Positions 3,811 through 33,582 of a stretch of 64,000 bases of DNA are shown here, one piece after another; the stretch's first letter is position 1, and each line of letters opens with the position of its first letter. The notes below the pieces were generated by a model. It saw only the letters and a program-made list of their open reading frames with translations. It had not been told where the DNA came from and did not search any database. The position numbers were made by a program, and so were the translations under genes. This DNA is from a plasmid: sequence record NZ_CP118990.1, one strand, 5' to 3'.

Positions 3811-3930
3811 TCTGAAACAGTTTCACATAAGATAATAGATTTCTTTTTTTTGTAAAGAGGCAGGTCCTTGATAATCGACCGTTTTTAGTGGCCTGGTAGA
3901 AACGGGTGCTGTATAAGCTAAAACCTCGGT

Positions 3931-4055
3931 ATGCCGCCCTTTGGCGGGGGTTAGCGGTTTGAGCCAGCGCAAAAACAAGCCAGAGCAGAGCCATGCTGGA
4001 GTGCCTCCCAGTGGCGGGGGTTAACAGATGAATGGCAACCTCTGGGGTTGAACGG
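3931..4055 (+). repeat. Degenerate CRISPR-repeat-like motifs (orphan mini-array relic) in the intergenic/promoter region upstream of csf1
   Basis: ccgccctttggcgggggttagcgg (3931-3957), cctcccagtggcgggggttaacag (4001-4027) and a weaker ctctggggttgaacgg (4038-4055). Compare the array consensus ccccgcaggcgggggttaacgg at 6955-7650. Same polarity as the main array. Confidence 0.5.
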
Positions 4056-4097: not shown

Positions 4098-4817
4098 ATG
4101 TTCAGTGACATTTTACCAACGGAACAAAGTTCTGGTGTTATTTCAGGGGGAAGTATGAAGGGTAATATAATTTCATGGAAAGATGAAAAAGGCTTCGGCT
4201 TTATAAAAAATGATGAGAATGGCGAACATATATTTTTTCATATATCGAGCGTTATAAAAGGGACGAGGCAGCCTATTGTTGGTGATGCAGTTACATTTGA
4301 TGTAGGGGTTGATTCCAGCAACCGAAAAAAAGCAAAAGATATTTTTATTGAAGGGGTGTCATTTACCAATATCCCAAGGCGAGTATTTACGGAAAAGGTT
4401 AAGCGCGACCGTTTCGATTATTATTGTTACGTCGCGATAGTGTTATCAGTGGCAATAACACTCGCTGTGTATATTAAAATGGGGCAGCCTCGACTGGCAT
4501 TATTTCCCGCCGCCGTTGCTATAATGCTGTTTTTGTATATCTCCGTCCGTACTAAAAAACCTGCAAATGACATATTCTCATGCGGGAAATGCTCATCAGT
4601 GGTTAGACATGACGCAAGAACCATTCGGGCATGGAATAAGGGTGCGTGTAAATTATATTGCAGAACCTGCAATCAGAACTGGCATCGTGAAAAGCCACAA
4701 AGGGATAGCACTAAAAAATATAATCGCCCTCAGAAGTCTGGATGTCTAGGGGTATTATTATTTATAACATTCGTGCCGGTATTTTTAATTTCAAGCATCA
4801 TCACCTTACTGGTGTAG
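4098..4817 (+). CDS. Cold-shock-domain (CspA-like) protein fused to a C-terminal membrane / Cys-rich zinc-ribbon region
   Basis: N-terminus KGNIISWKDEKGFGFIK...HIFFHISSV carries the CSD RNP1/RNP2-like motifs. Two hydrophobic helices (YYCYVAIVLSVAITLAVYI, ALFPAAVAIMLFLYI). CGKC...CRTC motif. Locally AT-rich. Confidence 0.6.
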   Translation: MFSDILPTEQSSGVISGGSMKGNIISWKDEKGFGFIKNDENGEHIFFHISSVIKGTRQPIVGDAVTFDVGVDSSNRKKAKDIFIEGVSFTNIPRRVFTEKVKRDRFDYYCYVAIVLSVAITLAVYIKMGQPRLALFPAAVAIMLFLYISVRTKKPANDIFSCGKCSSVVRHDARTIRAWNKGACKLYCRTCNQNWHREKPQRDSTKKYNRPQKSGCLGVLLFITFVPVFLISSIITLLV

Positions 4818-5288: not shown

Positions 5289-5819
5289 ATGAGAGAGGTG
5301 CACTTCATTAGCCAGGTCGAGGCCGAAAAACTGGCGCCGGTTGCCGGTGCGGCGATGATCTCGATCACCGACCCGGACAAACCGGAGGCGGCCCTGGGAG
5401 ATTGGCAACTCTTGTATCGGGACAGCTTTTACGATGGTGGCTACAGTGAGGACACCATCCGTACCATGAAAGGGTCTTTTCGGATGAGCTACGCATCCTA
5501 CATTGACTCCCATCAGGCGAAGAACCTATCCAACTACATCGATGAGCTGGTGCAGAGCGGCATCAGCCAGATCTTTGTTCACTGCTACTACGGGGAATCC
5601 CGAAGTGGCGCGATTGCTTTGTATCTGTGCAACAAACATGGATTCACCTCGAACAAGCCCATCACCAAGCCTAACAGGACGGTCTACGATCTCCTCTGCT
5701 CCCCTTTGAAATATGAAGCACTGATACAGAGTTACGAAACACAAGATGCTGCGCCTACCGAGAGTATCTACACCAAGATATGGGATTTATTGCTCGTGGC
5801 TATCGGTGTTAGGAGGTAA
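5289..5819 (+). CDS. Cys-based protein phosphatase-like protein (CX5R P-loop)
   Basis: 176 aa. VHCYYGESRSGA matches the HCxxGxxR(S/T) signature of the PTP/DUSP superfamily. Confidence 0.45.
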   Translation: MREVHFISQVEAEKLAPVAGAAMISITDPDKPEAALGDWQLLYRDSFYDGGYSEDTIRTMKGSFRMSYASYIDSHQAKNLSNYIDELVQSGISQIFVHCYYGESRSGAIALYLCNKHGFTSNKPITKPNRTVYDLLCSPLKYEALIQSYETQDAAPTESIYTKIWDLLLVAIGVRR

Positions 5820-5821
5820 CT

Positions 5822-6826
5822 TTGCACCAACGGAACAACCGCGACACCACTGAACTTTCACACGCGAAAGTCATTGTCTTGCCAGAACAAACCTCAGGTG
5901 GAGGCCTCCCGCAAGTCACCGGGGGGCTCAGAAGCGCACAAGATAATCCGGCAGTTGCATACCTGATCAGCCTTGGCTCCAGGCGCAGTCGGCAAACCAT
6001 GGGCTCATTTCTCAGCATTGTTGCTCGGATGATCGGGTACCAAAACCTGCGTGATTGCGCGTGGGAGTCGATGCGGCGGCATCATGTCCAAGCTGTGATC
6101 CAAATGCTCAGTGACTCTGACCGAGCGCCAGCTACGATCAATACCTACCTGGCAGCGCTGAAAGGAGTTGCCCTGGAAGCGTGGACAATGAAGCTGATTG
6201 ATACCGACAGTTACCAGCATATCAAGCAGGTGCGTTCGGTGAGAGGCTCTCGTTTACCCAACGGGCGGGCCCTCGAAAAGCACGAGGTCAGAGCCCTTTA
6301 TTTCACATGTGAAAACGATCGGAGCTCCAAAGGGCTGCGTGACGCAGCCATCCTTGCTGTTTTAGTCGGGTGCGGACTTCGGCGCTCAGAGGTTGTCGCC
6401 CTCGATATGGAATGTGTCATCACCAGGGATCAGGCACTTCGTGTGCTCGGTAAGGGCAATAAAGAACGCATCGCCTATGTGCCTGACGGGGCATGGCAGC
6501 GGCTTATGCGGTGGGTGGAGGAGGTTCGTGGTGATCAGCCGGGATCGCTGTTTCAGCGGATCAGGCGGTTTGATGATGTCACCGCCGACAGAATGACTGA
6601 CCAGGCTATCTATCACATTCTTGAAACGAGAAGGATTGAGGCGGGGCTGGAAAAATTCGCTCCTCATGATCTCCGCAGAACCTTTGCATCGGCCATGCTG
6701 GATAATGGCGAGGACATCATCACGGTCAAGGATGCGATGGGCCATGCCAGTGTCACGACCACGCAGAAGTATGATCGTCGGGGAGATGAGCGATTGAAAC
6801 AGGCCAGTCGGCGACTCGATTTTTGA
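5822..6826 (+). CDS. Tyrosine site-specific recombinase (phage integrase family, XerC/XerD-like)
   Basis: C-terminal catalytic motifs: VGCGLRRSEVVALD, GKGNKERIAYVP, HDLRRTFAS, GHASVTTTQKY. The true start may be an internal Met (e.g. MGSFLSIV). Confidence 0.8.
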   Translation: MHQRNNRDTTELSHAKVIVLPEQTSGGGLPQVTGGLRSAQDNPAVAYLISLGSRRSRQTMGSFLSIVARMIGYQNLRDCAWESMRRHHVQAVIQMLSDSDRAPATINTYLAALKGVALEAWTMKLIDTDSYQHIKQVRSVRGSRLPNGRALEKHEVRALYFTCENDRSSKGLRDAAILAVLVGCGLRRSEVVALDMECVITRDQALRVLGKGNKERIAYVPDGAWQRLMRWVEEVRGDQPGSLFQRIRRFDDVTADRMTDQAIYHILETRRIEAGLEKFAPHDLRRTFASAMLDNGEDIITVKDAMGHASVTTTQKYDRRGDERLKQASRRLDF

Positions 6827-6829
6827 GTC

Positions 6830-6954
6830 GGAAGACCAATGTTAATCAGTTGCGCACTCAGAATTTAAGAGGTAAATTTCAGCCACCAATCCTCAAGTGT
6901 GCGAACATCGCTGAACGTGACCTAATCTTGATGGTAATTGTTGACTTGGTAAGT
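6830..6954 (+). promoter_or_regulatory. Putative CRISPR leader
   Basis: About 125-bp AT-richer segment directly 5' of the first repeat. Polarity inferred from the repeat orientation (stem then TTAACGG 3' handle) and from the degenerate terminal repeat at the other end. Confidence 0.4.
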
Positions 6955-7650
6955 ATCGCCCCCCCGCAGGTGGGGGTTAACGGGCGTGTAAAGCGTCCAA
7001 CGTGACTTACAGAAAATCGCCCCCCCGCAGGTGGGGGTTAACGGAGTGGATGCATTTGCTGACTTCCACCGATGAATCGTCCCCCGTGCCTGGGGGTTAA
7101 CGGTACTCGGCCTGGCACAACATGGACCTCACCCGATTTCTCCCCCGCAGCTGGGGGTTAACGCCGCGAGGGGAGCTGTTGCTATAGCGGGAATGAATCC
7201 CCCACCGCAGGCGGGGGTTAACGGCGTCAGCACATCACACAGCTATTGAGCACCAGATCGATCCCCCGCAGGCGGGGGTTAACGGTTTTCGATGATGTCG
7301 GTGGCGTTTGCCATCATATCGCCCCCCGCAGGCGGGGGTTAACGGACGCTGATAACGCATATCGACGACGGATTTGAATCACCCCCCCGCAGGCGGGGGT
7401 TAACGGCCCGCGGGATAGAGAAGTGGTGCCATCAGCGCATCTCTCCCCCGAGCCTGGGGGTTAACGGTGCCCTTTTTGTGCACAAACAAAAAAATCAAAA
7501 TCCATCCCCCTGTTACGGGGGTTAACGAAGCGGGACGTCGTGGTGCTGTGCTGCGGCTGCATCTCCCCCCAGCAGGCGGGGGTTAACGTTAGCTTCACAC
7601 CAGGCCTTGATAGCATCGCCGATCTATCCCTCGCGACTGGGGGTTATCGG
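6955..7650 (+). CRISPR. CRISPR array: 12 repeats of 29 bp (consensus ATCGCCCCCCGCAGGCGGGGGTTAACGG) and 11 spacers of 31-33 bp
   Basis: Period 61 bp. Repeat starts near 6955, 7016, 7076, 7137, 7198, 7259, 7320, 7381, 7442, 7503, 7564, 7622. Palindromic stem CCCCCGC/GCGGGGG. Many repeats carry substitutions that keep stem pairing. Terminal repeat is degenerate (GGGGGTTATCGG). Confidence 0.9.
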
Positions 7651-7657
7651 GAGGAAG

Positions 7658-7834
7658 CATGGCACAACAGAACGTTTTCCTTCTTCGATTGAGGGTTATG
7701 CGCGAAATGGCCGCCGACACCGACTCGGTGATCTCTGCCGTCACGGCCGAGCTGCCAGTCGGTTTCCCTGAGCACATTAGCAAGGCCATTTTTTCTGGGT
7801 TGTCGGCTCAAGCAGCCAAGCTTCTGAGAGGGTG
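7658..7834 (+). CDS. Small ORF (58 aa) whose start lies inside the terminal CRISPR repeat
   Basis: ATG at 7658 is preceded by GGGAGG formed from the last repeat. Below the 60-aa cutoff of the ORF track. Stop is 4 bp before the next ORF. Speculative. Confidence 0.3.
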
Positions 7835-7838
7835 AGAA

Positions 7839-11668: not shown

Positions 11669-12067
11669 TTACTCTCTGATCAGTGCCTCGATGATCGGGC
11701 AGATCGTTCCGCCGTCTCCCGCATCACATTGCTGCACCAGTTCGCCTAACAGTTGCTGCATGACGACCAAGTCGGCCATCTTCTGCTCGATCAACGCGAG
11801 CTTGCGTGCAGCCCGTGCTCGCGTTTCGGCACAGGCGCACGACTCATCCAGCGTCAGCAGTCCACCGACTTCCGAGAGCGTGAAACCCAGCGCCTGAGCC
11901 CGCTTGATGAAACGCAGTCGCTTCACCATGTCCACCGGATAGCGCCGATGGCCACCCAAGGGTTTGGCTGGTTCATCCAGCAGCCCGCGTCGCTGGTAGT
12001 AGCGGATCGTCTCGACGTTCACCCCGGCGGCGTCTGCCAGCTTGCCAATGGTCAGCTCTGTGGCCAT
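11669..12067 (-). CDS. merR: MerR-family metal-responsive transcriptional regulator, divergent from merT
   Basis: [30 protein letters not shown]-terminal Cys cluster (DESCACAE, QQCDAGDGGTICP). Confidence 0.75.
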   Translation of the reverse strand: MATELTIGKLADAAGVNVETIRYYQRRGLLDEPAKPLGGHRRYPVDMVKRLRFIKRAQALGFTLSEVGGLLTLDESCACAETRARAARKLALIEQKMADLVVMQQLLGELVQQCDAGDGGTICPIIEALIRE

Positions 12068-12070
12068 CAC

Positions 12071-12135
12071 TTTCTCCTTGATTCCGTACTTTGGTACGGA
12101 GTTTAGAATAGCACCTAGGCAATCAGGCTCAGGAG
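12071..12135. promoter_or_regulatory. mer operator/promoter dyad
   Basis: TCCGTACtttgGTACGGA between divergent merR and merT. Confidence 0.6.
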
Positions 12136-12492
12136 ATGGGAATGGGGATGCAACTCACCGGGAAAGGCTCGCTGGTCGCGAGTTCGCTGACCGCCATCGG
12201 TGCGTCGGTGTGCTGTGTCGGGCCACTGGTGCTGTTGGCACTCGGTGTCGGCGGTACGTGGGTGGGCGCTCTGACCATGATGGAGCCACTACGCCCCCTC
12301 TTCATCGGGTTGACTCTACTGTTCCTGGGATTGGCATTCCGCAAGCTCTACCTGGTGCCACAGGTTTGTACGCCAGGTACACCCTGCGCCGATCCGCGCA
12401 CGCTCGTGCGACAGCGACTCGTGTTCTGGATCGTCAGCGTGCTGCTGCTCGGCCTATTGGCCGTGCCGTGGCTCGCCCCGCTGTTCTACTGA
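12136..12492 (+). CDS. merT: Mercuric ion transport protein MerT
   Basis: TM1 Cys pair (SVCCVGPLVLL) and cytoplasmic-loop Cys pair (CTPGTPC). Paralogous to the copy at 20088-20438. Confidence 0.85.
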   Translation: MGMGMQLTGKGSLVASSLTAIGASVCCVGPLVLLALGVGGTWVGALTMMEPLRPLFIGLTLLFLGLAFRKLYLVPQVCTPGTPCADPRTLVRQRLVFWIVSVLLLGLLAVPWLAPLFY

Positions 12493-12504
12493 AGGAGATT
12501 AACC

Positions 12505-12780
12505 ATGCGCAAACTGCTGATCGCCGTGCTTTTCGCCTTGCCCTTCGTGGCGCTGGCGGCTCCCCCGAAAACCGTCACGCTCGACGTGCAGAACATGACG
12601 TGCGGACTCTGTCCGATCACGGTCAAGAAGTCGCTGGAGAAGGTGTCCGGCGTGAGTGACGTCCAGGTCAATTTCGACCAGAAGACGGCGACCGTCACCT
12701 ACGATCCCGATAAGGCCCAGCCCGAGGCACTGACTGAGGCGACCGCGAACGCGGGATACCCCTCCACAGTGCAGAAGTGA
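12505..12780 (+). CDS. merP: Periplasmic mercury-binding protein MerP
   Basis: Signal peptide plus HMA motif MTCGLCP. Confidence 0.9.
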   Translation: MRKLLIAVLFALPFVALAAPPKTVTLDVQNMTCGLCPITVKKSLEKVSGVSDVQVNFDQKTATVTYDPDKAQPEALTEATANAGYPSTVQK

Positions 12781-12787
12781 GGTCACG

Positions 12788-13000
12788 ATGAGCGCCATTG
12801 TCCTTGAGTCCGTGCTGACTTGCCCGCGCTGCGGCTTCGCCAAGCCGGAAACCATGCCCACGGACGCCTGCCAGTTCTATTACGAGTGCAGCAACTGCAA
12901 GGCGCTGCTGCGCCCCAACCCAGGGGATTGCTGCGTTTTCTGTTCGTTCGGCTCGGTGAAGTGCCCGCCGATCCAGCAGCAGCTTGGGTGTTGCTCATAG
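12788..13000 (+). CDS. Small Cys-rich GDCCVxC-motif protein (mer-locus associated)
   Basis: 70 aa with about 10 Cys, including GDCCVFC. Confidence 0.5.
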   Translation: MSAIVLESVLTCPRCGFAKPETMPTDACQFYYECSNCKALLRPNPGDCCVFCSFGSVKCPPIQQQLGCCS

Positions 13001-13006
13001 CGTTTA

Positions 13007-13044
13007 GGGGGATCACAGGTCGTCGTCTGGATTACGCAGTGGCC
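13007..13044 (+). repeat. Candidate Tn3-family terminal inverted repeat
   Basis: GGGGGATCACAGGTCGTCGTCTGGATTACGCAGTGGCC. Starts with G-run and overlaps the tnpA 3' end, as is typical. No matching inverted partner found in the window. Confidence 0.4.
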
Positions 13045-16006
13045 GCAGCTCGCCGCGCGCAACTTCTTCCGGTACCGCAAAGGAATACCGCCCGAGCATG
13101 TTGATGTGCTCGTAGATCAGCGGCGATAGCCGGGCCAAATCCTCTTCCAGCACTGGATAGCCGTGCTGCTTGAGCCGTTCCACGGCCGCCGTCATGTAGA
13201 GGGTGTTCCACAGCACGATGATGTTCACCACCAGGCCCAGAGCACCGAGCTGGTCTTCCTGGCCTTCGCGGTAGCGCTGGCGGAGCTCGCCGCGTTTGCC
13301 GTGGAACACGGCGCGGGCCAGGCTGTGCCCGCCTTCGCCTCGGTTCAACTGGGTCAGGGTGGCGCGGCGCTTGGACTCGTCGTCGATATAGGTCAACGTG
13401 TGCAGAGTCTTTTCGATCCGCCCGAATTCGGCCAGCGCCTGGGCCAGCCGGGTGGGTCTATCTCCCGTTTGCAGCGTGCGCATGATGCCAGTCGCCGGCA
13501 CCCGGCCGAGTTTGAGCGAGCCGGCCAGGCGCAGCAGGTCGTCCCAGTGCTCGGCGATCAGGTCGAGTTTGACCGACTGGCGGGCCAGCCCGTTGAGCTT
13601 GCCGTAGTCCGCGTCCGGGCGCGTGCGCCAGAAGCGGGTACCGCCGACATCGGCCAGCCGCGGACTGAAGTGGTAGCCAAGTAGGCGGAAGAGCCCGAAC
13701 ACCACATCGCTGTAGGCCCCGGTGTCGGTCATGATTTGCGTCGGCTGCAACTCGGTCTGCTGTTCCAGCACGACCGCCAGCAACACCAGGCTGTCGCGCA
13801 GCGTGCCGGGCACGGTGATGGCGTTGAGGCCGGAGAATTGGTCGGAAATCAGGTTGTACCAGGTGACACCCCGGCCGGTGCCGAAATACTTCGGATTGGG
13901 GCCGGCATGCACGGTGCGCACCGGTATGACGAAGCGCATGCCATCGGCGGAGGCGACCTCGCCGCCACCCCAGACTTGGGCCAGTTCCAGTTGGCTTTGC
14001 GCTCCGACCAGGATGGCGTTAGCCGCTGACAGGGTGTCGTCGCGGATATAATTCTGGCTGACCCAGGACAGCCGGTCACGGCGCAGCGCCGGGTTGTCGG
14101 TGCGGATCAAGGGCTCCAGGCCGGTGTTGCAGGCCCCGCCCAACAGCACCGCGCAGAGGCTGGTGACCAGGTTGTCGGCGCGTGCATTGCGTTCGGAGAC
14201 ATGGGTGAAGGCCTCGGAAAAGCCAGTGCGGGCGGCGATTTCCAAGAGGATTTCCGGCAGATCGACACGCGGCATCAGGTCAGACACGGCCGCCCGCAGT
14301 TGCAGCAACGAGCAGGGCTCGTCCAGCTTGTCCAGCGCCCCGAGCGACAGTTCGGTCTTGCCCTCGGTGTTCTCGCTCAGTTGAATCGCCGGGTTGTCGG
14401 GCAGGCGCGCGGCTACTGCCAGCCAGGTTGCATCCAGCTCGACGGACAAGGCGTCCAGGGTGGTTTTGGCGTCGATGGTCACGCCCAGTGACCGGCAGAT
14501 GATCGGTCGCGCCGCCAGCCATTCGGCACCGTCGAGCAGGCCAAGGCGCGGGTCGGCATAGCGCCAACTGGGCGAGACGAAGACATCGCGGCGGCGCAGG
14601 GCCGTGCGCAGCGCATCGAGCGTGCAGAACACATAGGCACCCATGTCGAGGGAGCCATCTTCGCGGGTGATGTGCTTCTGCCAAGCCTTGGCCACGATCT
14701 CCTGCGGCGCGTCATCCTCTGGCTTCCGGCGCGGCAGGTTCAGTTGCAGCCACTCCAGACTAGCCGCCACGCCCTTGCCGGCCGGGCTGAAGCCGAAGCG
14801 GATGTGCTTGAGCAGGTCGGGCAGGAAGCGGCGCACGCTGCGGTAGCGCGCTTCCAATGCAAGAAAATAGACGTCATCTACCGGGCGGATCAGCGCGTTG
14901 ACCTCTTCCAGGGCCTTTTCCAGGGTGGTCCTCGGCAGGTCGTTGAACAGCCGGGCGCGCACGTTGTCATCGCTGATCGAGCTGTCCAGCACGACCTTGC
15001 ACGCGGCGGCGAGCGTCGCGGCCGACCGATCCAGGTCTTTCAGGCTGCGCATGCGGGCTTTCTTGTCGGCCTTCTCCGCGTTGCTGAACAGGTCGCGCAG
15101 CAAGGCCTCCAGGACTTCCAGTGCGTCGTCGTGCGCAGTCGCCTCCAGGCAGAGTGCGAAGGCCACCAGTGTCGCCATCCGCCGCGACGCCGGCAGCCGA
15201 TTAATCGCGGTGACCTTGGCCGTGTTGGCGAAGCGGGCCAGGGCGGCGATACGGCTGGGAGGGATGTGCGCCGCCGCCGGCAAGGTGATGCCGATGCCGC
15301 GCACGTCATCGAGCCGGCGCAGTGCCCGAATCAACGCGGGGCCACTGACCATGACCGGGCCGGAGCGCAATTGATCCAGCCGGGAGCTGCGGTTGCCTTC
15401 GGCCACCGTCAGCAAGTCTTGCAGTTGCAATCGCTGTTCCTCAGTCACGCTGCGGCCCAGCGTAAACCAGAGGCGTTCTTCGACCCGACTGCGCAACTGG
15501 GCGATAAAGCGCTCTAGTTGAGACACACCAGGCAGGAGGACTTTCTGTGTGAACAGCCACGAGGTGGCTCGCTCAAACAGCACTCCCGGCCGGTCGGTGC
15601 CCGTCCAGCAGAGGGCATACAGCCAGCGGCTCAAGCGAAAGCCGATGCCCGGATCGGTGAAATGACGATAGCCAAAGCGGTTCTGAATATCGGTGGCATG
15701 TATCCAGCGGCGATGATCGCTATAGCGCTGGAGGCAGTCGGGGTCTGGAATCGCCAGTTGTCGGCAAAGCACCTGCAGGACTTCCACCGGCACGGCGGCG
15801 GGCTTGTCCGGCAGAACGCCAACGAAGCGGACGGTGGTCAGCAGAACGGCATAACCCAGACGGTTATGGTTACCCCGCAGCACCTGGATGGCTTCACGGT
15901 CTTCATCGCTCAGGTGGAAGTAACGTTCCAGCTCTTCACGGCTGGGCGAATCAACATAGCGGCCAAAACCGTCGCGTTGCTCTTGAGTCAGAAAACCGAC
16001 CGGCAT
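13013..16006 (-). CDS. tnpA: Tn3-family transposase TnpA
   Basis: 997 aa. Tn3-type DDE transposase. C-terminus similar to the TnpA tail fused in the 40927-41547 remnant. Confidence 0.95.
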   Translation of the reverse strand: MPVGFLTQEQRDGFGRYVDSPSREELERYFHLSDEDREAIQVLRGNHNRLGYAVLLTTVRFVGVLPDKPAAVPVEVLQVLCRQLAIPDPDCLQRYSDHRRWIHATDIQNRFGYRHFTDPGIGFRLSRWLYALCWTGTDRPGVLFERATSWLFTQKVLLPGVSQLERFIAQLRSRVEERLWFTLGRSVTEEQRLQLQDLLTVAEGNRSSRLDQLRSGPVMVSGPALIRALRRLDDVRGIGITLPAAAHIPPSRIAALARFANTAKVTAINRLPASRRMATLVAFALCLEATAHDDALEVLEALLRDLFSNAEKADKKARMRSLKDLDRSAATLAAACKVVLDSSISDDNVRARLFNDLPRTTLEKALEEVNALIRPVDDVYFLALEARYRSVRRFLPDLLKHIRFGFSPAGKGVAASLEWLQLNLPRRKPEDDAPQEIVAKAWQKHITREDGSLDMGAYVFCTLDALRTALRRRDVFVSPSWRYADPRLGLLDGAEWLAARPIICRSLGVTIDAKTTLDALSVELDATWLAVAARLPDNPAIQLSENTEGKTELSLGALDKLDEPCSLLQLRAAVSDLMPRVDLPEILLEIAARTGFSEAFTHVSERNARADNLVTSLCAVLLGGACNTGLEPLIRTDNPALRRDRLSWVSQNYIRDDTLSAANAILVGAQSQLELAQVWGGGEVASADGMRFVIPVRTVHAGPNPKYFGTGRGVTWYNLISDQFSGLNAITVPGTLRDSLVLLAVVLEQQTELQPTQIMTDTGAYSDVVFGLFRLLGYHFSPRLADVGGTRFWRTRPDADYGKLNGLARQSVKLDLIAEHWDDLLRLAGSLKLGRVPATGIMRTLQTGDRPTRLAQALAEFGRIEKTLHTLTYIDDESKRRATLTQLNRGEGGHSLARAVFHGKRGELRQRYREGQEDQLGALGLVVNIIVLWNTLYMTAAVERLKQHGYPVLEEDLARLSPLIYEHINMLGRYSFAVPEEVARGELRPLRNPDDDL

Positions 16007-16009
16007 TGA

Positions 16010-16420
16010 TCACAGCACCTCGACGCAGAACACGGCGGGCGTGACGATCCGCGTGCGTTCGATGTGCCCGCGTTGCAGCAGGCCGGCGCGGCGATCACCG
16101 GTTATCAGGTAGTCCGCATCGCCCGCCAAGGCCATGGCCAGCAAAAACGAGTCATCCGGATCATCGGCTTCGACCTCGATGGTCAGGCGCTCCAGTACCA
16201 CAGCCCGTTGCAGGTTATTGATCATGGCGCCCACCTTGGCGGGCTGTAGGATGGCCTGAAGCTTGGGATAGCGGCTGGCTCGACGAATTTCATCGAGTTG
16301 CATCCGCGAGGTCACCACCTCGAAACGCGCCGCCCGCCAGGCACGGTAGATCGCATCGGGCGCGCCATGTGGCGAGATCAGGGCGCTGAACAGGATGTTG
16401 GTATCCAACACGACCCGCAT
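16010..16420 (-). CDS. vapC: PIN-domain toxin (VapC-like)
   Basis: MRVVLDTNILFSA... with conserved acidic residues; 136 aa. Confidence 0.75.
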   Translation of the reverse strand: MRVVLDTNILFSALISPHGAPDAIYRAWRAARFEVVTSRMQLDEIRRASRYPKLQAILQPAKVGAMINNLQRAVVLERLTIEVEADDPDDSFLLAMALAGDADYLITGDRRAGLLQRGHIERTRIVTPAVFCVEVL

Positions 16421-16659
16421 CAGCGCTTACGTGCCCAGTCGAGCGCTTCGTCAACCGCGTTGGTCAATTCTGCCTCACTCAGATGGGCGTTAGCGGCCTT
16501 GGCCTGCTCAGCGCTCAGCTCCAGGATGTGTGCCCGTACCGCTTCTTCGATGAAGCGCGACAGGTCGCCCTTACGGCCGCCGCCCTGGCTGGCCAGAAAC
16601 ATCCGAAGCGACTGGTCGGTGTCGGCCGAGACGGCGACATTCCAGCGAATGGTATTCAT
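16420..16659 (-). CDS. Cognate antitoxin of the PIN toxin
   Basis: 79 aa. Stop/start overlap with toxin (ATGA). Position between res and toxin is typical of Tn3-family TA passengers. Confidence 0.55.
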   Translation of the reverse strand: MNTIRWNVAVSADTDQSLRMFLASQGGGRKGDLSRFIEEAVRAHILELSAEQAKAANAHLSEAELTNAVDEALDWARKR

Positions 16660-16756
16660 AGCGTTCTCCGCTAATAGGTGTTTGTGTGTTTATACGCCAA
16701 TCACAAAGGGCGATGCAATGGTTCGACAAAACGAACGTATATGTGACAGGTACGAC
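16660..16756. promoter_or_regulatory. res site / divergent promoter region between TA-tnpA and tnpR
   Basis: Intergenic between divergently transcribed recombination genes. Inferred by analogy to Tn3-family organisation. Confidence 0.4.
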
Positions 16757-17371
16757 ATGCTGATAGGCTACATGCGGGTATCGAAGGCGGACGGCTCCCA
16801 GGCTACCGATTTGCAGCGCGACGCGCTGATTGCCGCCGGGGTCGATCCAGTACATCTTTACGAGGACCAGGCATCCGGCATGCGCGAGGATCGGCCCGGC
16901 TTGACGAGCTGCCTGAAGGCGTTGCGAACTGGCGACACACTGGTCGTGTGGAAACTGGATCGGCTCGGACGCGACCTGCGACATCTCATCAACACCGTGC
17001 ACGACCTGACTGGGCGCGGCATCGGCTTGAAGGTATTAACCGGGCACGGCGCGGCCATCGACACCACGACCGCCGCCGGCAAGCTGGTCTTTGGCATCTT
17101 CGCCGCCCTGGCCGAGTTCGAGCGCGAGTTGATCGCGGAGCGCACGATTGCCGGCCTAGCCTCGGCCCGCGCGCGCGGGCGGAAAGGCGGCCGGCCGTTC
17201 AAGATGACCGCCGCCAAGCTGCGGCTGGCGATGGCGGCAATGGGTCAGCCAGAGACCAAGGTCGGCGACCTGTGCCAGGAACTTGGCGTCACGCGGCAGA
17301 CCCTGTATCGGCATGTTTCACCCAAGGGTGAGCTACGTCCAGATGGCGAGAAGCTACTCAGCCGAATTTGA
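16757..17371 (+). CDS. tnpR: Serine recombinase resolvase TnpR
   Basis: MLIGYMRVSKADGSQ...; C-terminal HTH. ORF track extends upstream to 16298 but the conserved start is at 16757. Confidence 0.9.
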   Translation: MLIGYMRVSKADGSQATDLQRDALIAAGVDPVHLYEDQASGMREDRPGLTSCLKALRTGDTLVVWKLDRLGRDLRHLINTVHDLTGRGIGLKVLTGHGAAIDTTTAAGKLVFGIFAALAEFERELIAERTIAGLASARARGRKGGRPFKMTAAKLRLAMAAMGQPETKVGDLCQELGVTRQTLYRHVSPKGELRPDGEKLLSRI

Positions 17372-17423
17372 TGCCGGCATGAGGCAACGTAGCGACAGCG
17401 TGGTTTGTCTCAATGGGAAGCGC

Positions 17424-17660
17424 TCATGATCGACCTCTGAAGGCCCGCAGCAGCCGCGTCACAGACAGGACAAACAAGCCGGTCAGCGTGAGGGCTGCAA
17501 TACCCCAGTGCTCGCCGATGAACGCGCCGGCCGTCGTGCCGGCCAGCACAATGGCGAGAATCGGCAAATGACAGGGACAGGTGAGCACCGCCAGCGCACC
17601 CCACAGGTAGCCGGTGAACGGCTTGTGTGTCTCGGTCGGCAAGCGCTCGGGGCTGTTCAT
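17424..17660 (-). CDS. merE: Mercury resistance protein MerE
   Basis: 78 aa. LTCPCHLP motif. Confidence 0.85.
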
Positions 17661-18022
17661 GGCAGACTCTCCGCTTGCTGGGCCGGCGCGGTCGGCATCG
17701 CGGCCAACTGCACTTCCAGATCGGCCAACGCTTCGCGTCGGCGTTCGACGAACTGACTCAGCACGGCAAGCTGTGCGGCTGTTTCATCGCAGTCCGCCGC
17801 ATCCAGCGCCCGGCACAACCGCGCCAATGCGTCCAGGCCGATGCCCGCCTCAAAAGCGGCCCGCACAAAGCACAGCCGCTGCAAGGCGGCGTCATCGAAC
17901 AAGCCGTAGCCGCCCGTGGTGCAGGCGACTGGCCGCAGCAATCCGCGCAGCAGGTAGTCGCGCACGATATGCACGCTCACCCCGGCCTCAAGGGCCAGTC
18001 GGGACACTGTGTAGGCGTTCAT
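17657..18022 (-). CDS. merD: MerD co-regulator
   Basis: MerR-like HTH N-terminus [23 protein letters not shown]. Position after merA. Confidence 0.85.
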
Positions 18023-18039
18023 CGAACACCTCCTTTTCC

Positions 18040-19788
<1,749 letters not shown>

Positions 19789-19796
19789 TCAGTGCC

Positions 19797-20072
19797 TCAC
19801 TTCTTGACGCTGGACGGATAGCCTGCGTCTTCGGTGGCCTTGGTCAGCTTCTGCACGCTGGTCTTGGCATCATCGAAGGTGACAACCGCTTCGCGTGTCT
19901 CGAAGGTCACGTTAACTTTGCTGACGCCTTCGACCTTGGAAATCGCCTTCTTGACGGTGATCGGACAAGCGGAGCAGGTCATGCCCGGTACGGACAGCGT
20001 GACGGTCTGGGTGGCGGCCCACACGGGGGCAACAACGGCAGCGATGGCGAGAGAGGCAAACAGTTTTTTCAT
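19797..20072 (-). CDS. merP: MerP
   Basis: Signal peptide plus GMTCSACP. Confidence 0.9.
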   Translation of the reverse strand: MKKLFASLAIAAVVAPVWAATQTVTLSVPGMTCSACPITVKKAISKVEGVSKVNVTFETREAVVTFDDAKTSVQKLTKATEDAGYPSSVKK

Positions 20073-33400: not shown

Positions 33401-33582
33401 TGATGCCCGCGCTTATTGGCGGGGCAGGGTTGTTTAGCGTGATCCATGTGTTATTATTTTCCTGTTCTTAGTGAACGACCCCGAACTCTCTTACCGACTC
33501 CGCCAAGATGAAGATAAGAGATTCGGGGTTTGTCTTTTCTGGCCAGTACGTTACCGCAGGCGGTCACACCTTACAACGTCCG

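Follow-up and report, generated by a model that had tools for sequence, protein, structure and literature searches.

What is retained, and why, in a CRISPR array in which almost every repeat has a different sequence? The question is raised by positions 6955–7650 (+ strand) of a 64,000-nucleotide (nt) stretch of plasmid record NZ_CP118990.1, referred to here as the window, where 12 repeats (R1–R12) of 28–29 nt recur with a period of 59–61 nt and enclose 11 spacers (S01–S11), all unique. Only R1 and R2 are identical, leaving 11 distinct full repeats and nine distinct 16-nt hairpin cores. We consider it likely that the array encodes the guides of a divergent type IV-A3-like CRISPR-Cas system on a pAsa4-like conjugative Aeromonas plasmid, and that its heterogeneity reflects episodic turnover together with selection. 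It is best read as part of a plasmid-borne IV-A3-like interference system, and as active now or until recently.

Repeat variation and the retained hairpin

An earlier, sequence-only reading had placed 12 repeats and 11 spacers at these positions, and both were recovered there, as were all five hairpin variants that it quoted. It gave the spacers 31–33 nt; with repeat bounds set by the start ATC (ATT in R4) and the end GGGGGTTAxCGN, ten spacers are 32 nt and one (S02) is 31 nt, and the third spacer given there as an example includes 3 nt (ATT) of the next repeat. Regular direct repeats that alternate with unique spacers of constant length (31–32 nt) are those of a CRISPR array. The final base of each repeat (G, T, C or A) acts as part of the spacer that follows, so that the functional units are 33 nt. 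Tandem Repeats Finder reports no tandem array at 6955–7650, because the spacers are unique, and no Rfam family lies within the array; both results are expected for CRISPR.

Variation was counted as non-consensus cells in a right-anchored alignment of the 12 repeats. It is concentrated in the 5′ flank (20/72) and in the loop with its closing pair (23/72), and is scarce in the 5′ arm of the stem (3/60), absent from the 3′ arm (0/60) and almost absent from the six fixed bases of the 3′-terminal tag (1/72). Flank and loop together hold 43 non-consensus cells out of 144, versus 4 out of 192 for the C5/G5 arms and the UUAACG tag (Fisher p ~8e-14, on cells that are not independent). The tag TTAACG is unchanged in 11 of the 12 repeats, next to a loop that is nearly saturated with changes.

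Folding each variant, as the sequence-only reading had suggested, gives a hairpin in all 12 repeats, with minimum free energies (MFE) of −7.1 to −13.2 kcal/mol. In simulations that kept the number of substitutions of each repeat and randomised their positions, the 3′ arm was fully paired in a mean of 7.4 repeats, compared with the observed 12 of 12 (P ~0.001), and the observed mean MFE of −11.3 kcal/mol lies below 98.6% of the simulations. The hairpin is thus kept far more often than substitutions placed at random would allow. R5 and R11 break the aligned register and yet keep it, because extra upstream C residues take over the pairing. The C run varies between 5 and 8 and the G run is exactly 5 throughout, which fits a fixed cut site past the G arm.

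The compensatory changes to which this retention had been attributed are not found. Across the 15 distinct variants of the array family, 96.7% of pair cells are paired, none of the six stem pairs is changed on both sides, and the covariation score equals the shuffled mean (0.094 versus 0.097). Only two kinds of stem change are tolerated as pairs, G-U in place of G-C at the loop-closing pair and a single U-G in R12. What is seen is conserved sequence in the C5/G5 arms and the 7-nt tag, not covariation; selection on the hairpin, as had been proposed, stands as a constraint on these elements and loses its compensatory argument. A column-wise covariation analysis that included the repeats of the Aeromonas media plasmid pAeme3 and of Klebsiella IV-A3 arrays was abandoned, as stem lengths differ and loops do not align.

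Sibling arrays, spacer acquisition and targets

We compared 14 versions of the array, the window's own included. The 13 siblings come from three PLSDB Aeromonas plasmids (L001–L003: AP022242, AP019196 and AP022282), an NCBI assembly (L006), a metagenome contig (L029) and several Logan and ENA contigs; in L006, L007 and L036 the array is identical to that of the window. The same spacer is accompanied by the same repeat variant across at least 10 independent assemblies. Assembly or sequencing error was rejected as a source of the variants, which recur in independent assemblies. The repeat variants are old, heritable cassette markers common to the siblings, a point that the sequence-only reading had missed, as it had the uniformity of the leader-end repeats and the distance between array and cas operon.

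The repeat downstream of each shared spacer is constant, except for S01 (C-run length) and S06 (a loop variant in L008), and the upstream repeat varies for S02, S06, S07, S08 and S09. This is most simply explained by deletions and unequal crossovers that resolve in the 3′ block GGGGGTTAACG, the only long identity between diverged repeats. At the same site past the recombinase gene, L001–L003 carry a 17-repeat array (L002:8940–9938) in which nine near-identical leader-side repeats are followed by the diverged trailer-side cassettes of the window; in these orphan arrays, which lack accompanying cas genes, the block of uniform and apparently recent repeats at the leader end is the largest. The spacers of L008 run S02 S03 S06 N01 N02 S09 S10 S07 N03, an order that deletions alone could not produce, so that recombination is needed, and its leader-proximal repeat is of the window's R3 type, which means that lineages differ in their 'current' repeat. 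Rearranged spacers had already been noted in IV-A3 arrays (PMC7038947).

The siblings also indicate how the array grows. Their spacers vary, with internal deletions and with additions at the leader end, where the novel spacers N04, A01 and N06 are flanked by the uniform GCAGGT-type repeat. This arrangement shows that new spacers enter at the leader end and that the first repeat is duplicated as they do so. The final repeat base follows the downstream spacer though the rest of the repeat differs (C with S04, A with S10, T with S11), and the flank of the S06 protospacer reads GGAA and then, across the boundary, G, giving an AAG protospacer-adjacent motif (PAM), the G of which is the one that the array retains. 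These bases show that the last base of the tag derives from the protospacer PAM (AAG), as in type I-E adaptation, and this implies host Cas1-Cas2 acting in trans. Klebsiella IV-A3 arrays are served in this way by Cas1/2e, and incorporation of the PAM G has been shown experimentally. Type I-E modules with cas1/cas2 are present in Aeromonas but rare: among 41 A. veronii genomes, type I-E Cas1 and Cas2 are both listed in one, and one more has a partial I-E set (PMC6715197). The leader is 97–100% conserved in L001 and L008. Its motif AACATCGCTGAA at 6903–6920, ~35–50 nt upstream of R1, is common to both array leaders of pAeme3, kept despite ~40% divergence of the Cas proteins between the two plasmids.

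A scan of genome contigs for pairs of adjacent conserved 3′ blocks gave nothing but a chance match in Streptomyces; the same scan of metagenomes returned one true sibling (L029) and one related I-E-like family (L020 and L025). Many other metagenome matches were discarded as unrelated tandem repeats. L020 and L025, short metagenome contigs named Ga0105355_..., carry AT-rich spacers and a uniform repeat of I-E-like type, GTGTTCCCCGTGTATATGGGGGTTAACGG, whose 3′ block and tag GGGGGTTAACGG are also those of the window repeat. These two could point to the type of host system that supplies Cas1-Cas2 to arrays such as the one in the window.

For target searches in 'distant' mode (E ≤ 1), the 11 spacers, each with its PAM-derived base, were joined by N runs. 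S06 is the sole window spacer that matches PLSDB outside the sibling arrays: it agrees at 31 of 33 positions (the preceding G counted) with the pilin gene traA of six large Aeromonas plasmids, pAeme3 (CP038446) and pMCR5_045096 (CP028567) among them, where the gene is annotated 'TraA family conjugative transfer protein' or 'pili assembly chaperone'. The array has an I-E-like repeat, and the AAG PAM is present at this one good protospacer, in two plasmid variants; coming from a single protospacer, the PAM is suggestive only. Among spacers found only in siblings, A02 matches CP083946 (32/32) and A03 matches pAerIX (28/29), both small Aeromonas plasmids. The array is thus plasmid-borne and plasmid-biased, with all spacer matches in Aeromonas plasmids and none in phage. 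None of the 11 spacers has a match at E ≤ 1 in a database of 50,697 phage records, and IMG/VR seed scans with S01, S02, S03 and S05 gave no match. Within the 64-kb window there is no self-target, the longest exact match being 12 nt and near-matches reaching 13/14 nt. The spacers of pAeme3 have only a 15-nt chance match to the window, and targeting is not reciprocal. The sequence-only reading had stated that type IV-A systems are known to target other conjugative plasmids and proposed searching plasmids, phages and the replicon itself; S06, with its traA match and AAG PAM, bears this out for at least one spacer.

The split locus, the proposed mechanism and its alternatives

The assignment to type IV-A, also made in the earlier reading, is supported by PADLOC IV-A3 models that match Csf1, Cas6 and DinG in the window (Table 1) and by the Cas5 and Cas7 of identical sibling contigs. 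The operon order is csf1-cas6-dinG-cas5-cas7. In L006 the complete Cas5 has 232 amino acids (aa; Csf3gr5, 2.2e-72), and the next protein, of 343 aa, is Cas7 (Csf2_1_IVA3, 2.1e-103). DinG/Csf4, Csf1, a Cas6e-like Csf5, Csf3 and Csf2 (Cas7, outside the window) are together the gene set of subtype IV-A3. Cas6e models match Cas6 less well than Cas6_0_IVA3 does, and its Pfam CRISPR_assoc match is weak; the NCBIfam cas_csf4 match of DinG (3.3e-30) falls under the cut-off of that model. Cas6 is presumed to be the endoribonuclease that recognises the repeat hairpin. Neither cas1/cas2 nor an effector nuclease was found among the open reading frames (ORFs) between positions 1 and 10.3 kb of the window or in the 10-kb flanks of sibling contigs. 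In RefSeq, these proteins (Aeromonas caviae, A. veronii and Aeromonas sp.) are labelled 'helicase C-terminal domain-containing protein' or 'hypothetical protein'.

The array does not adjoin the operon, an adjacency that is typical of IV-A3 and not strictly defining, and this split layout is kept in all sibling contigs. The backbone is that of a pAsa4-like MOBH/MPF_F conjugative Aeromonas plasmid. In L011 (an SRR7796540 contig, positions 600–1130), an identical DinG and the same recombinase gene are present, with other small ORFs in the place of the array, so that the cas operon can occur without an array at this site. Conversely, a DinG homologue is found nowhere in plasmids L001–L003, and homologues of csf1 and cas6 are absent from the flanks fetched, so that maintenance of the array does not strictly need the operon in cis. 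Most sibling contigs have, directly upstream of csf1, a predicted 66-aa ORF (~3812–4012, −; L007:8322–8522) to which no family is assigned.

By homology with Klebsiella IV-A3 and type I-E systems, the array would be transcribed from left to right, and Cas6 would bind each C5-loop-G5 hairpin and cut directly 3′ of the G5 arm. Each CRISPR RNA (crRNA) would then begin with a 7-nt tag UUAACGN supplied by the upstream repeat, continue with a 32-nt guide and end in the hairpin of the repeat downstream, and the complex, with DinG, is predicted to silence or destabilise matching DNA of rival plasmids. Since the system appears to lack its own adaptation module and would depend on host Cas1-Cas2, turnover would be episodic and old cassettes would persist, so that older repeats could diverge where the machinery tolerates it, namely in the loop and its closing pair, in the 3 nt that precede the stem and in C-run length. 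The two 5-nt arms of the Cas6 hairpin, the cut site and the Cas5-bound tag would be held by purifying selection. Some variants probably originated as leader-proximal repeats of separate plasmid lineages that were later joined by recombination. As only GGGGGTTAACG is identical among the diverged repeats, crossovers would resolve there and each spacer would stay with its own downstream hairpin.

Several observations weigh against this reading. The cas7 gene and the C-terminus of Cas5 lie beyond the window and are supplied by contigs with identical DinG; the array stands 3.1 kb upstream of csf1, divergent and beyond three non-cas genes; and three related plasmids (L001–L003) keep the array without cas genes. 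One of the 11 window spacers has a database match, and that with two mismatches, and the A02 and A03 matches have no AAG flank. In the leader (6827–6954), there is no consensus site for integration host factor (IHF) at up to one mismatch and no sigma-70 consensus promoter on the + strand; as the IHF consensus is a feature of the leaders of Klebsiella IV-A3 and type I-E, the leader points to no particular partner for adaptation in trans. Finally, conservation of G/C runs without covariation could partly reflect a cause other than RNA structure.

The heterogeneity might instead come mainly from mosaic assembly, each lineage having fixed its own leader-proximal variant before recombination stitched the cassettes together, with in-situ mutation a minor contributor. 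Such an origin is possible, if on balance doubtful. The leader-proximal repeat of L008 is of the GTGCCT type and is duplicated around S02, which in the window is preceded by the GCAGGT type; S07 follows S10 in the shuffled order of L008, for which deletions alone are insufficient; and loops differ at 3–4 of 4 positions, whereas spacers shared between arrays are identical or 1 nt apart. Yet for most trailer-end variants (TGTTAC, GAGCCT, GCGACT, CCACC) no array was found that carries them as a uniform leader-proximal type, the closest separate lineage, that of pAeme3, has a clearly different repeat, and a mosaic, which overlaps with the explanation that we prefer, would still require selection on stem and tag. 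It is improbable that the array is a decaying relic without functional guides whose hairpins are a by-product of low substitution in G/C homopolymer runs. Repeat divergence unusual for an active array, the orphan arrays and ten of 11 spacers without a match would suit a relic; against it, csf1, cas6 and dinG are intact as ORFs, contigs with identical DinG have the whole operon, close relatives have acquired spacers at the leader end, the non-homopolymer tag is constant in all but one repeat beside its nearly saturated loop, and the G run is always exactly 5 while the C run ranges from 5 to 8.

Highly improbable is the proposal that covarying, compensatory changes uphold the hairpin and are direct evidence of selection on RNA structure. 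It would account for a hairpin kept in all variants and could draw on one apparent case between families, the window stem CCCCCG/CGGGGG versus CTCCCG/CGGGAG in pAeme3; within the array family, however, the doubly changed pairs that it predicts are absent and the covariation score is that of shuffled alignments. We also think it quite unlikely that repeat diversity is itself selected because it lowers recombination between repeats and so protects spacers where they can rarely be replaced. Most repeats share only ~11 nt of uninterrupted identity, and crossovers seem confined to this 11-nt block, which would explain the constant linkage to the downstream repeat; but among the 14 arrays spacers are still often deleted or rearranged, nearly uniform repeats suffice in the related arrays of pAeme3 and Klebsiella, and on these data a benefit of diversity is indistinguishable from mere tolerance.

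In effect, nature has run a mutational scan of the repeat. The prediction from its variants is that the two 5-nt arms, the cut site and six fixed tag bases are required and that the loop, closing pair and 5′ flank are free, which is of use in designing minimal or recombination-resistant IV-A3 guide arrays. Cassette linkage also provides a simple marker for array recombination among environmental and clinical Aeromonas plasmids. A bolder conjecture, which we advance with little confidence, is that in systems without cas1/2 repeat divergence makes stable cassettes of a spacer and its own hairpin that share a single recombination site, the 11-nt 3′ block, and that the arrays of Aeromonas plasmids may be assembled and reordered largely through exchange between co-resident plasmids, orphan arrays included, as an adaptation route parallel to Cas1-Cas2.

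Table 1. Coordinates of the array, the cas genes and other features of the window
Feature	Positions	Strand	Remarks
cas5 (csf3), N-terminal 153 codons	1–459	−	ORF MFEFEPFRLV..., exits the left edge of the window
dinG (csf4), helicase, 649 aa	459–2408	−	PADLOC Csf4_0_IVA, E = 3.9e-154
cas6 (csf5), Cas6e-like, 190 aa	2405–2977	−	PADLOC Cas6_0_IVA3, E = 1.5e-23
csf1, Cas8-like large subunit, 278 aa	2974–3810	−	PADLOC Csf1_2_IVA3, E = 2.2e-65
Cold-shock-domain membrane protein	4098–4817		Between csf1 and array
176-aa protein	5289–5819		Between csf1 and array; backbone gene of the plasmid family
Tyrosine recombinase	5822–6826		Between csf1 and array; backbone gene of the plasmid family
Leader	6827–6954	+	Recombinase stop codon to first repeat; carries AACATCGCTGAA
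R1 ATCGCCCCCCCGCAGGTGGGGGTTAACGG	6955–6983	+	Leader-proximal (current) repeat type; flanks every leader-end novel spacer in sibling arrays
S01	6984–7015	+	Spacer without match
R2	7016–7044	+	Same sequence as R1
S02	7045–7075	+	31-nt spacer without match
R3 ATCGTCCCCCGTGCCTGGGGGTTAACGG	7076–7103	+	28 nt, loop variant; leader-proximal type of sibling array L008
S03	7104–7135	+	Spacer
R4 ATTTCTCCCCCGCAGCTGGGGGTTAACGC	7136–7164	+	Repeat, starts ATT
S04	7165–7196	+	Spacer; copy in L001–L003 has 1 mismatch
R5 ATCCCCCACCGCAGGCGGGGGTTAACGG	7197–7224	+	A inside 5′ arm; upstream C residues rescue hairpin
S05	7225–7256	+	Spacer without match
R6 ATCGATCCCCCGCAGGCGGGGGTTAACGG	7257–7285	+	Repeat
S06	7286–7317	+	Spacer matching traA (pilin) of large Aeromonas plasmids
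R7 ATCGCCCCCCGCAGGCGGGGGTTAACGG	7318–7345	+	28 nt
S07	7346–7377	+	Spacer; absent in L001–L003 and L029, after S10 in L008
R8 ATCACCCCCCCGCAGGCGGGGGTTAACGG	7378–7406	+	Repeat
S08	7407–7438	+	Spacer
R9 ATCTCTCCCCCGAGCCTGGGGGTTAACGG	7439–7467	+	Repeat
S09	7468–7499	+	Spacer
R10 ATCCATCCCCCTGTTACGGGGGTTAACGA	7500–7528	+	Closing pair lost; 5-bp stem, 6-nt loop
S10	7529–7560	+	Spacer
R11 ATCTCCCCCCAGCAGGCGGGGGTTAACGT	7561–7589	+	Extra A beside loop enlarges loop
S11	7590–7621	+	Spacer
R12 ATCTATCCCTCGCGACTGGGGGTTATCGG	7622–7650	+	Terminal repeat, most degenerate; tag TTATCGG, as in Klebsiella IV-A3
merR-like ORF	11669–12070	−	Identity by eye only
merT-like ORF	12136–12492	+	Identity by eye only
997-aa ORF, Tn3-family transposase-like	13013–16006	−	Identity by eye only

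At the trailer end of the array, the 3′ end of R12 overlaps the ribosome-binding site (GGAGGA) of a 58-aa ORF at 7659–7835. The 32 nt past R12 (7651–7682) resemble S03, with 16/32 positions identical overall and an identical 10-nt run TGGCACAACA at the same offset (shuffle estimate P ~2e-4). Farther to the right, a GC-rich block (11669–20000, 60–65% GC) appears to be an inserted mercury-resistance transposon, ~4 kb from the array. At 33412–33531 (−), the Rfam family PK-repBA, a pseudoknot of the repBA regulatory region, matches with 52.1 bits, above its gathering score, which suggests an IncFII-type replication control region in the window.

Comparison with known systems

Type I-E arrays of E. 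coli and Klebsiella resemble the window array in having a stem-loop followed by a short handle, spacers of 32–33 nt, a first spacer base taken from an AAG PAM and acquisition at the leader end that duplicates the first repeat. The window locus differs from them in the lack of Cas3 and Cas1-Cas2, in a type IV effector with DinG, and in a 7-nt tag where I-E has 8 nt. Near-identity is the norm among I-E repeats, save for the terminal one.

The closest relative in PLSDB is pAeme3 (L032; CP038446.1), with 64% identity for Csf1, 53% for Cas6 and 62% for DinG. Its IV-A3-like operon is unannotated in the record, and the plasmid is itself a target of S06 through traA. It shares with the window the tag TTAACGG, the variable last base and the leader motif AACATCGCTGAA, and differs in its repeat GTCTCTCCCGTGCGCGGGAGGGTTAACGG, which has a longer stem, and in having two arrays (2027–2424 and 12869–13330) with almost uniform repeats. 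Both lie on the strand opposite the cas genes, one convergent just past cas7 and one 10 kb upstream.

The characterised systems nearest in kind are those of subtype IV-A3 on IncHI1B/IncFIB plasmids of Klebsiella pneumoniae (Newire 2020, PMC7434947; Pinilla-Redondo 2020, PMC7038947; Benz 2023, bioRxiv 10.1101/2023.06.23.546257; Cepaite 2024, PMC11519345), in which crRNAs have a 7-nt tag and a 3′ end capped by Cas6 (PMC11519345). The gene order is the same, with a Cas6e-like Cas6 and without cas1/2 beside the operon, and the system is likewise carried by a large MOBH/MPF_F conjugative plasmid and directed at conjugative-plasmid genes. Both have a 6-bp stem of C-rich and G-rich arms, a 7-nt tag, spacers of 32 + 1 nt with a PAM-derived G, an AAG PAM and variable loop positions. 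In an ungapped comparison, by our own count, the window repeat is identical to the Klebsiella repeat GTATTCCCCCCGTGTGCGGGGGTTATCGG at 20 of 29 positions, and the two share a 29-nt layout in which 5 nt are followed by a C-rich and then a G-rich arm, with a 4-nt loop between them, and by TTAxCGG at the end. On the other hand, DinG is only ~33% identical, the host (Aeromonas) and backbone (pAsa4-like) differ, and the Klebsiella array lies directly downstream of cas7 and has a leader with an IHF consensus, unlike the distant, divergent array described here. The number of distinct repeats also differs, with 11 of 12 in the window versus 3 of 10 in the Klebsiella IV-A3 array, where variation is limited to two loop positions; variation at loop positions was also noted by Newire 2020 (PMC7434947). 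The heterogeneity of the window repeats is unusually high for the subtype and the same in kind.

Literature searches found no description of a type IV-A system in Aeromonas. The locus is an unannotated member of type IV-A3 with a new host and plasmid background, an unusual split layout and unusually diverged repeats, and it extends plasmid-versus-plasmid CRISPR of this subtype from Klebsiella IncHI1B/IncFIB plasmids to pAsa4-like Aeromonas resistance plasmids.

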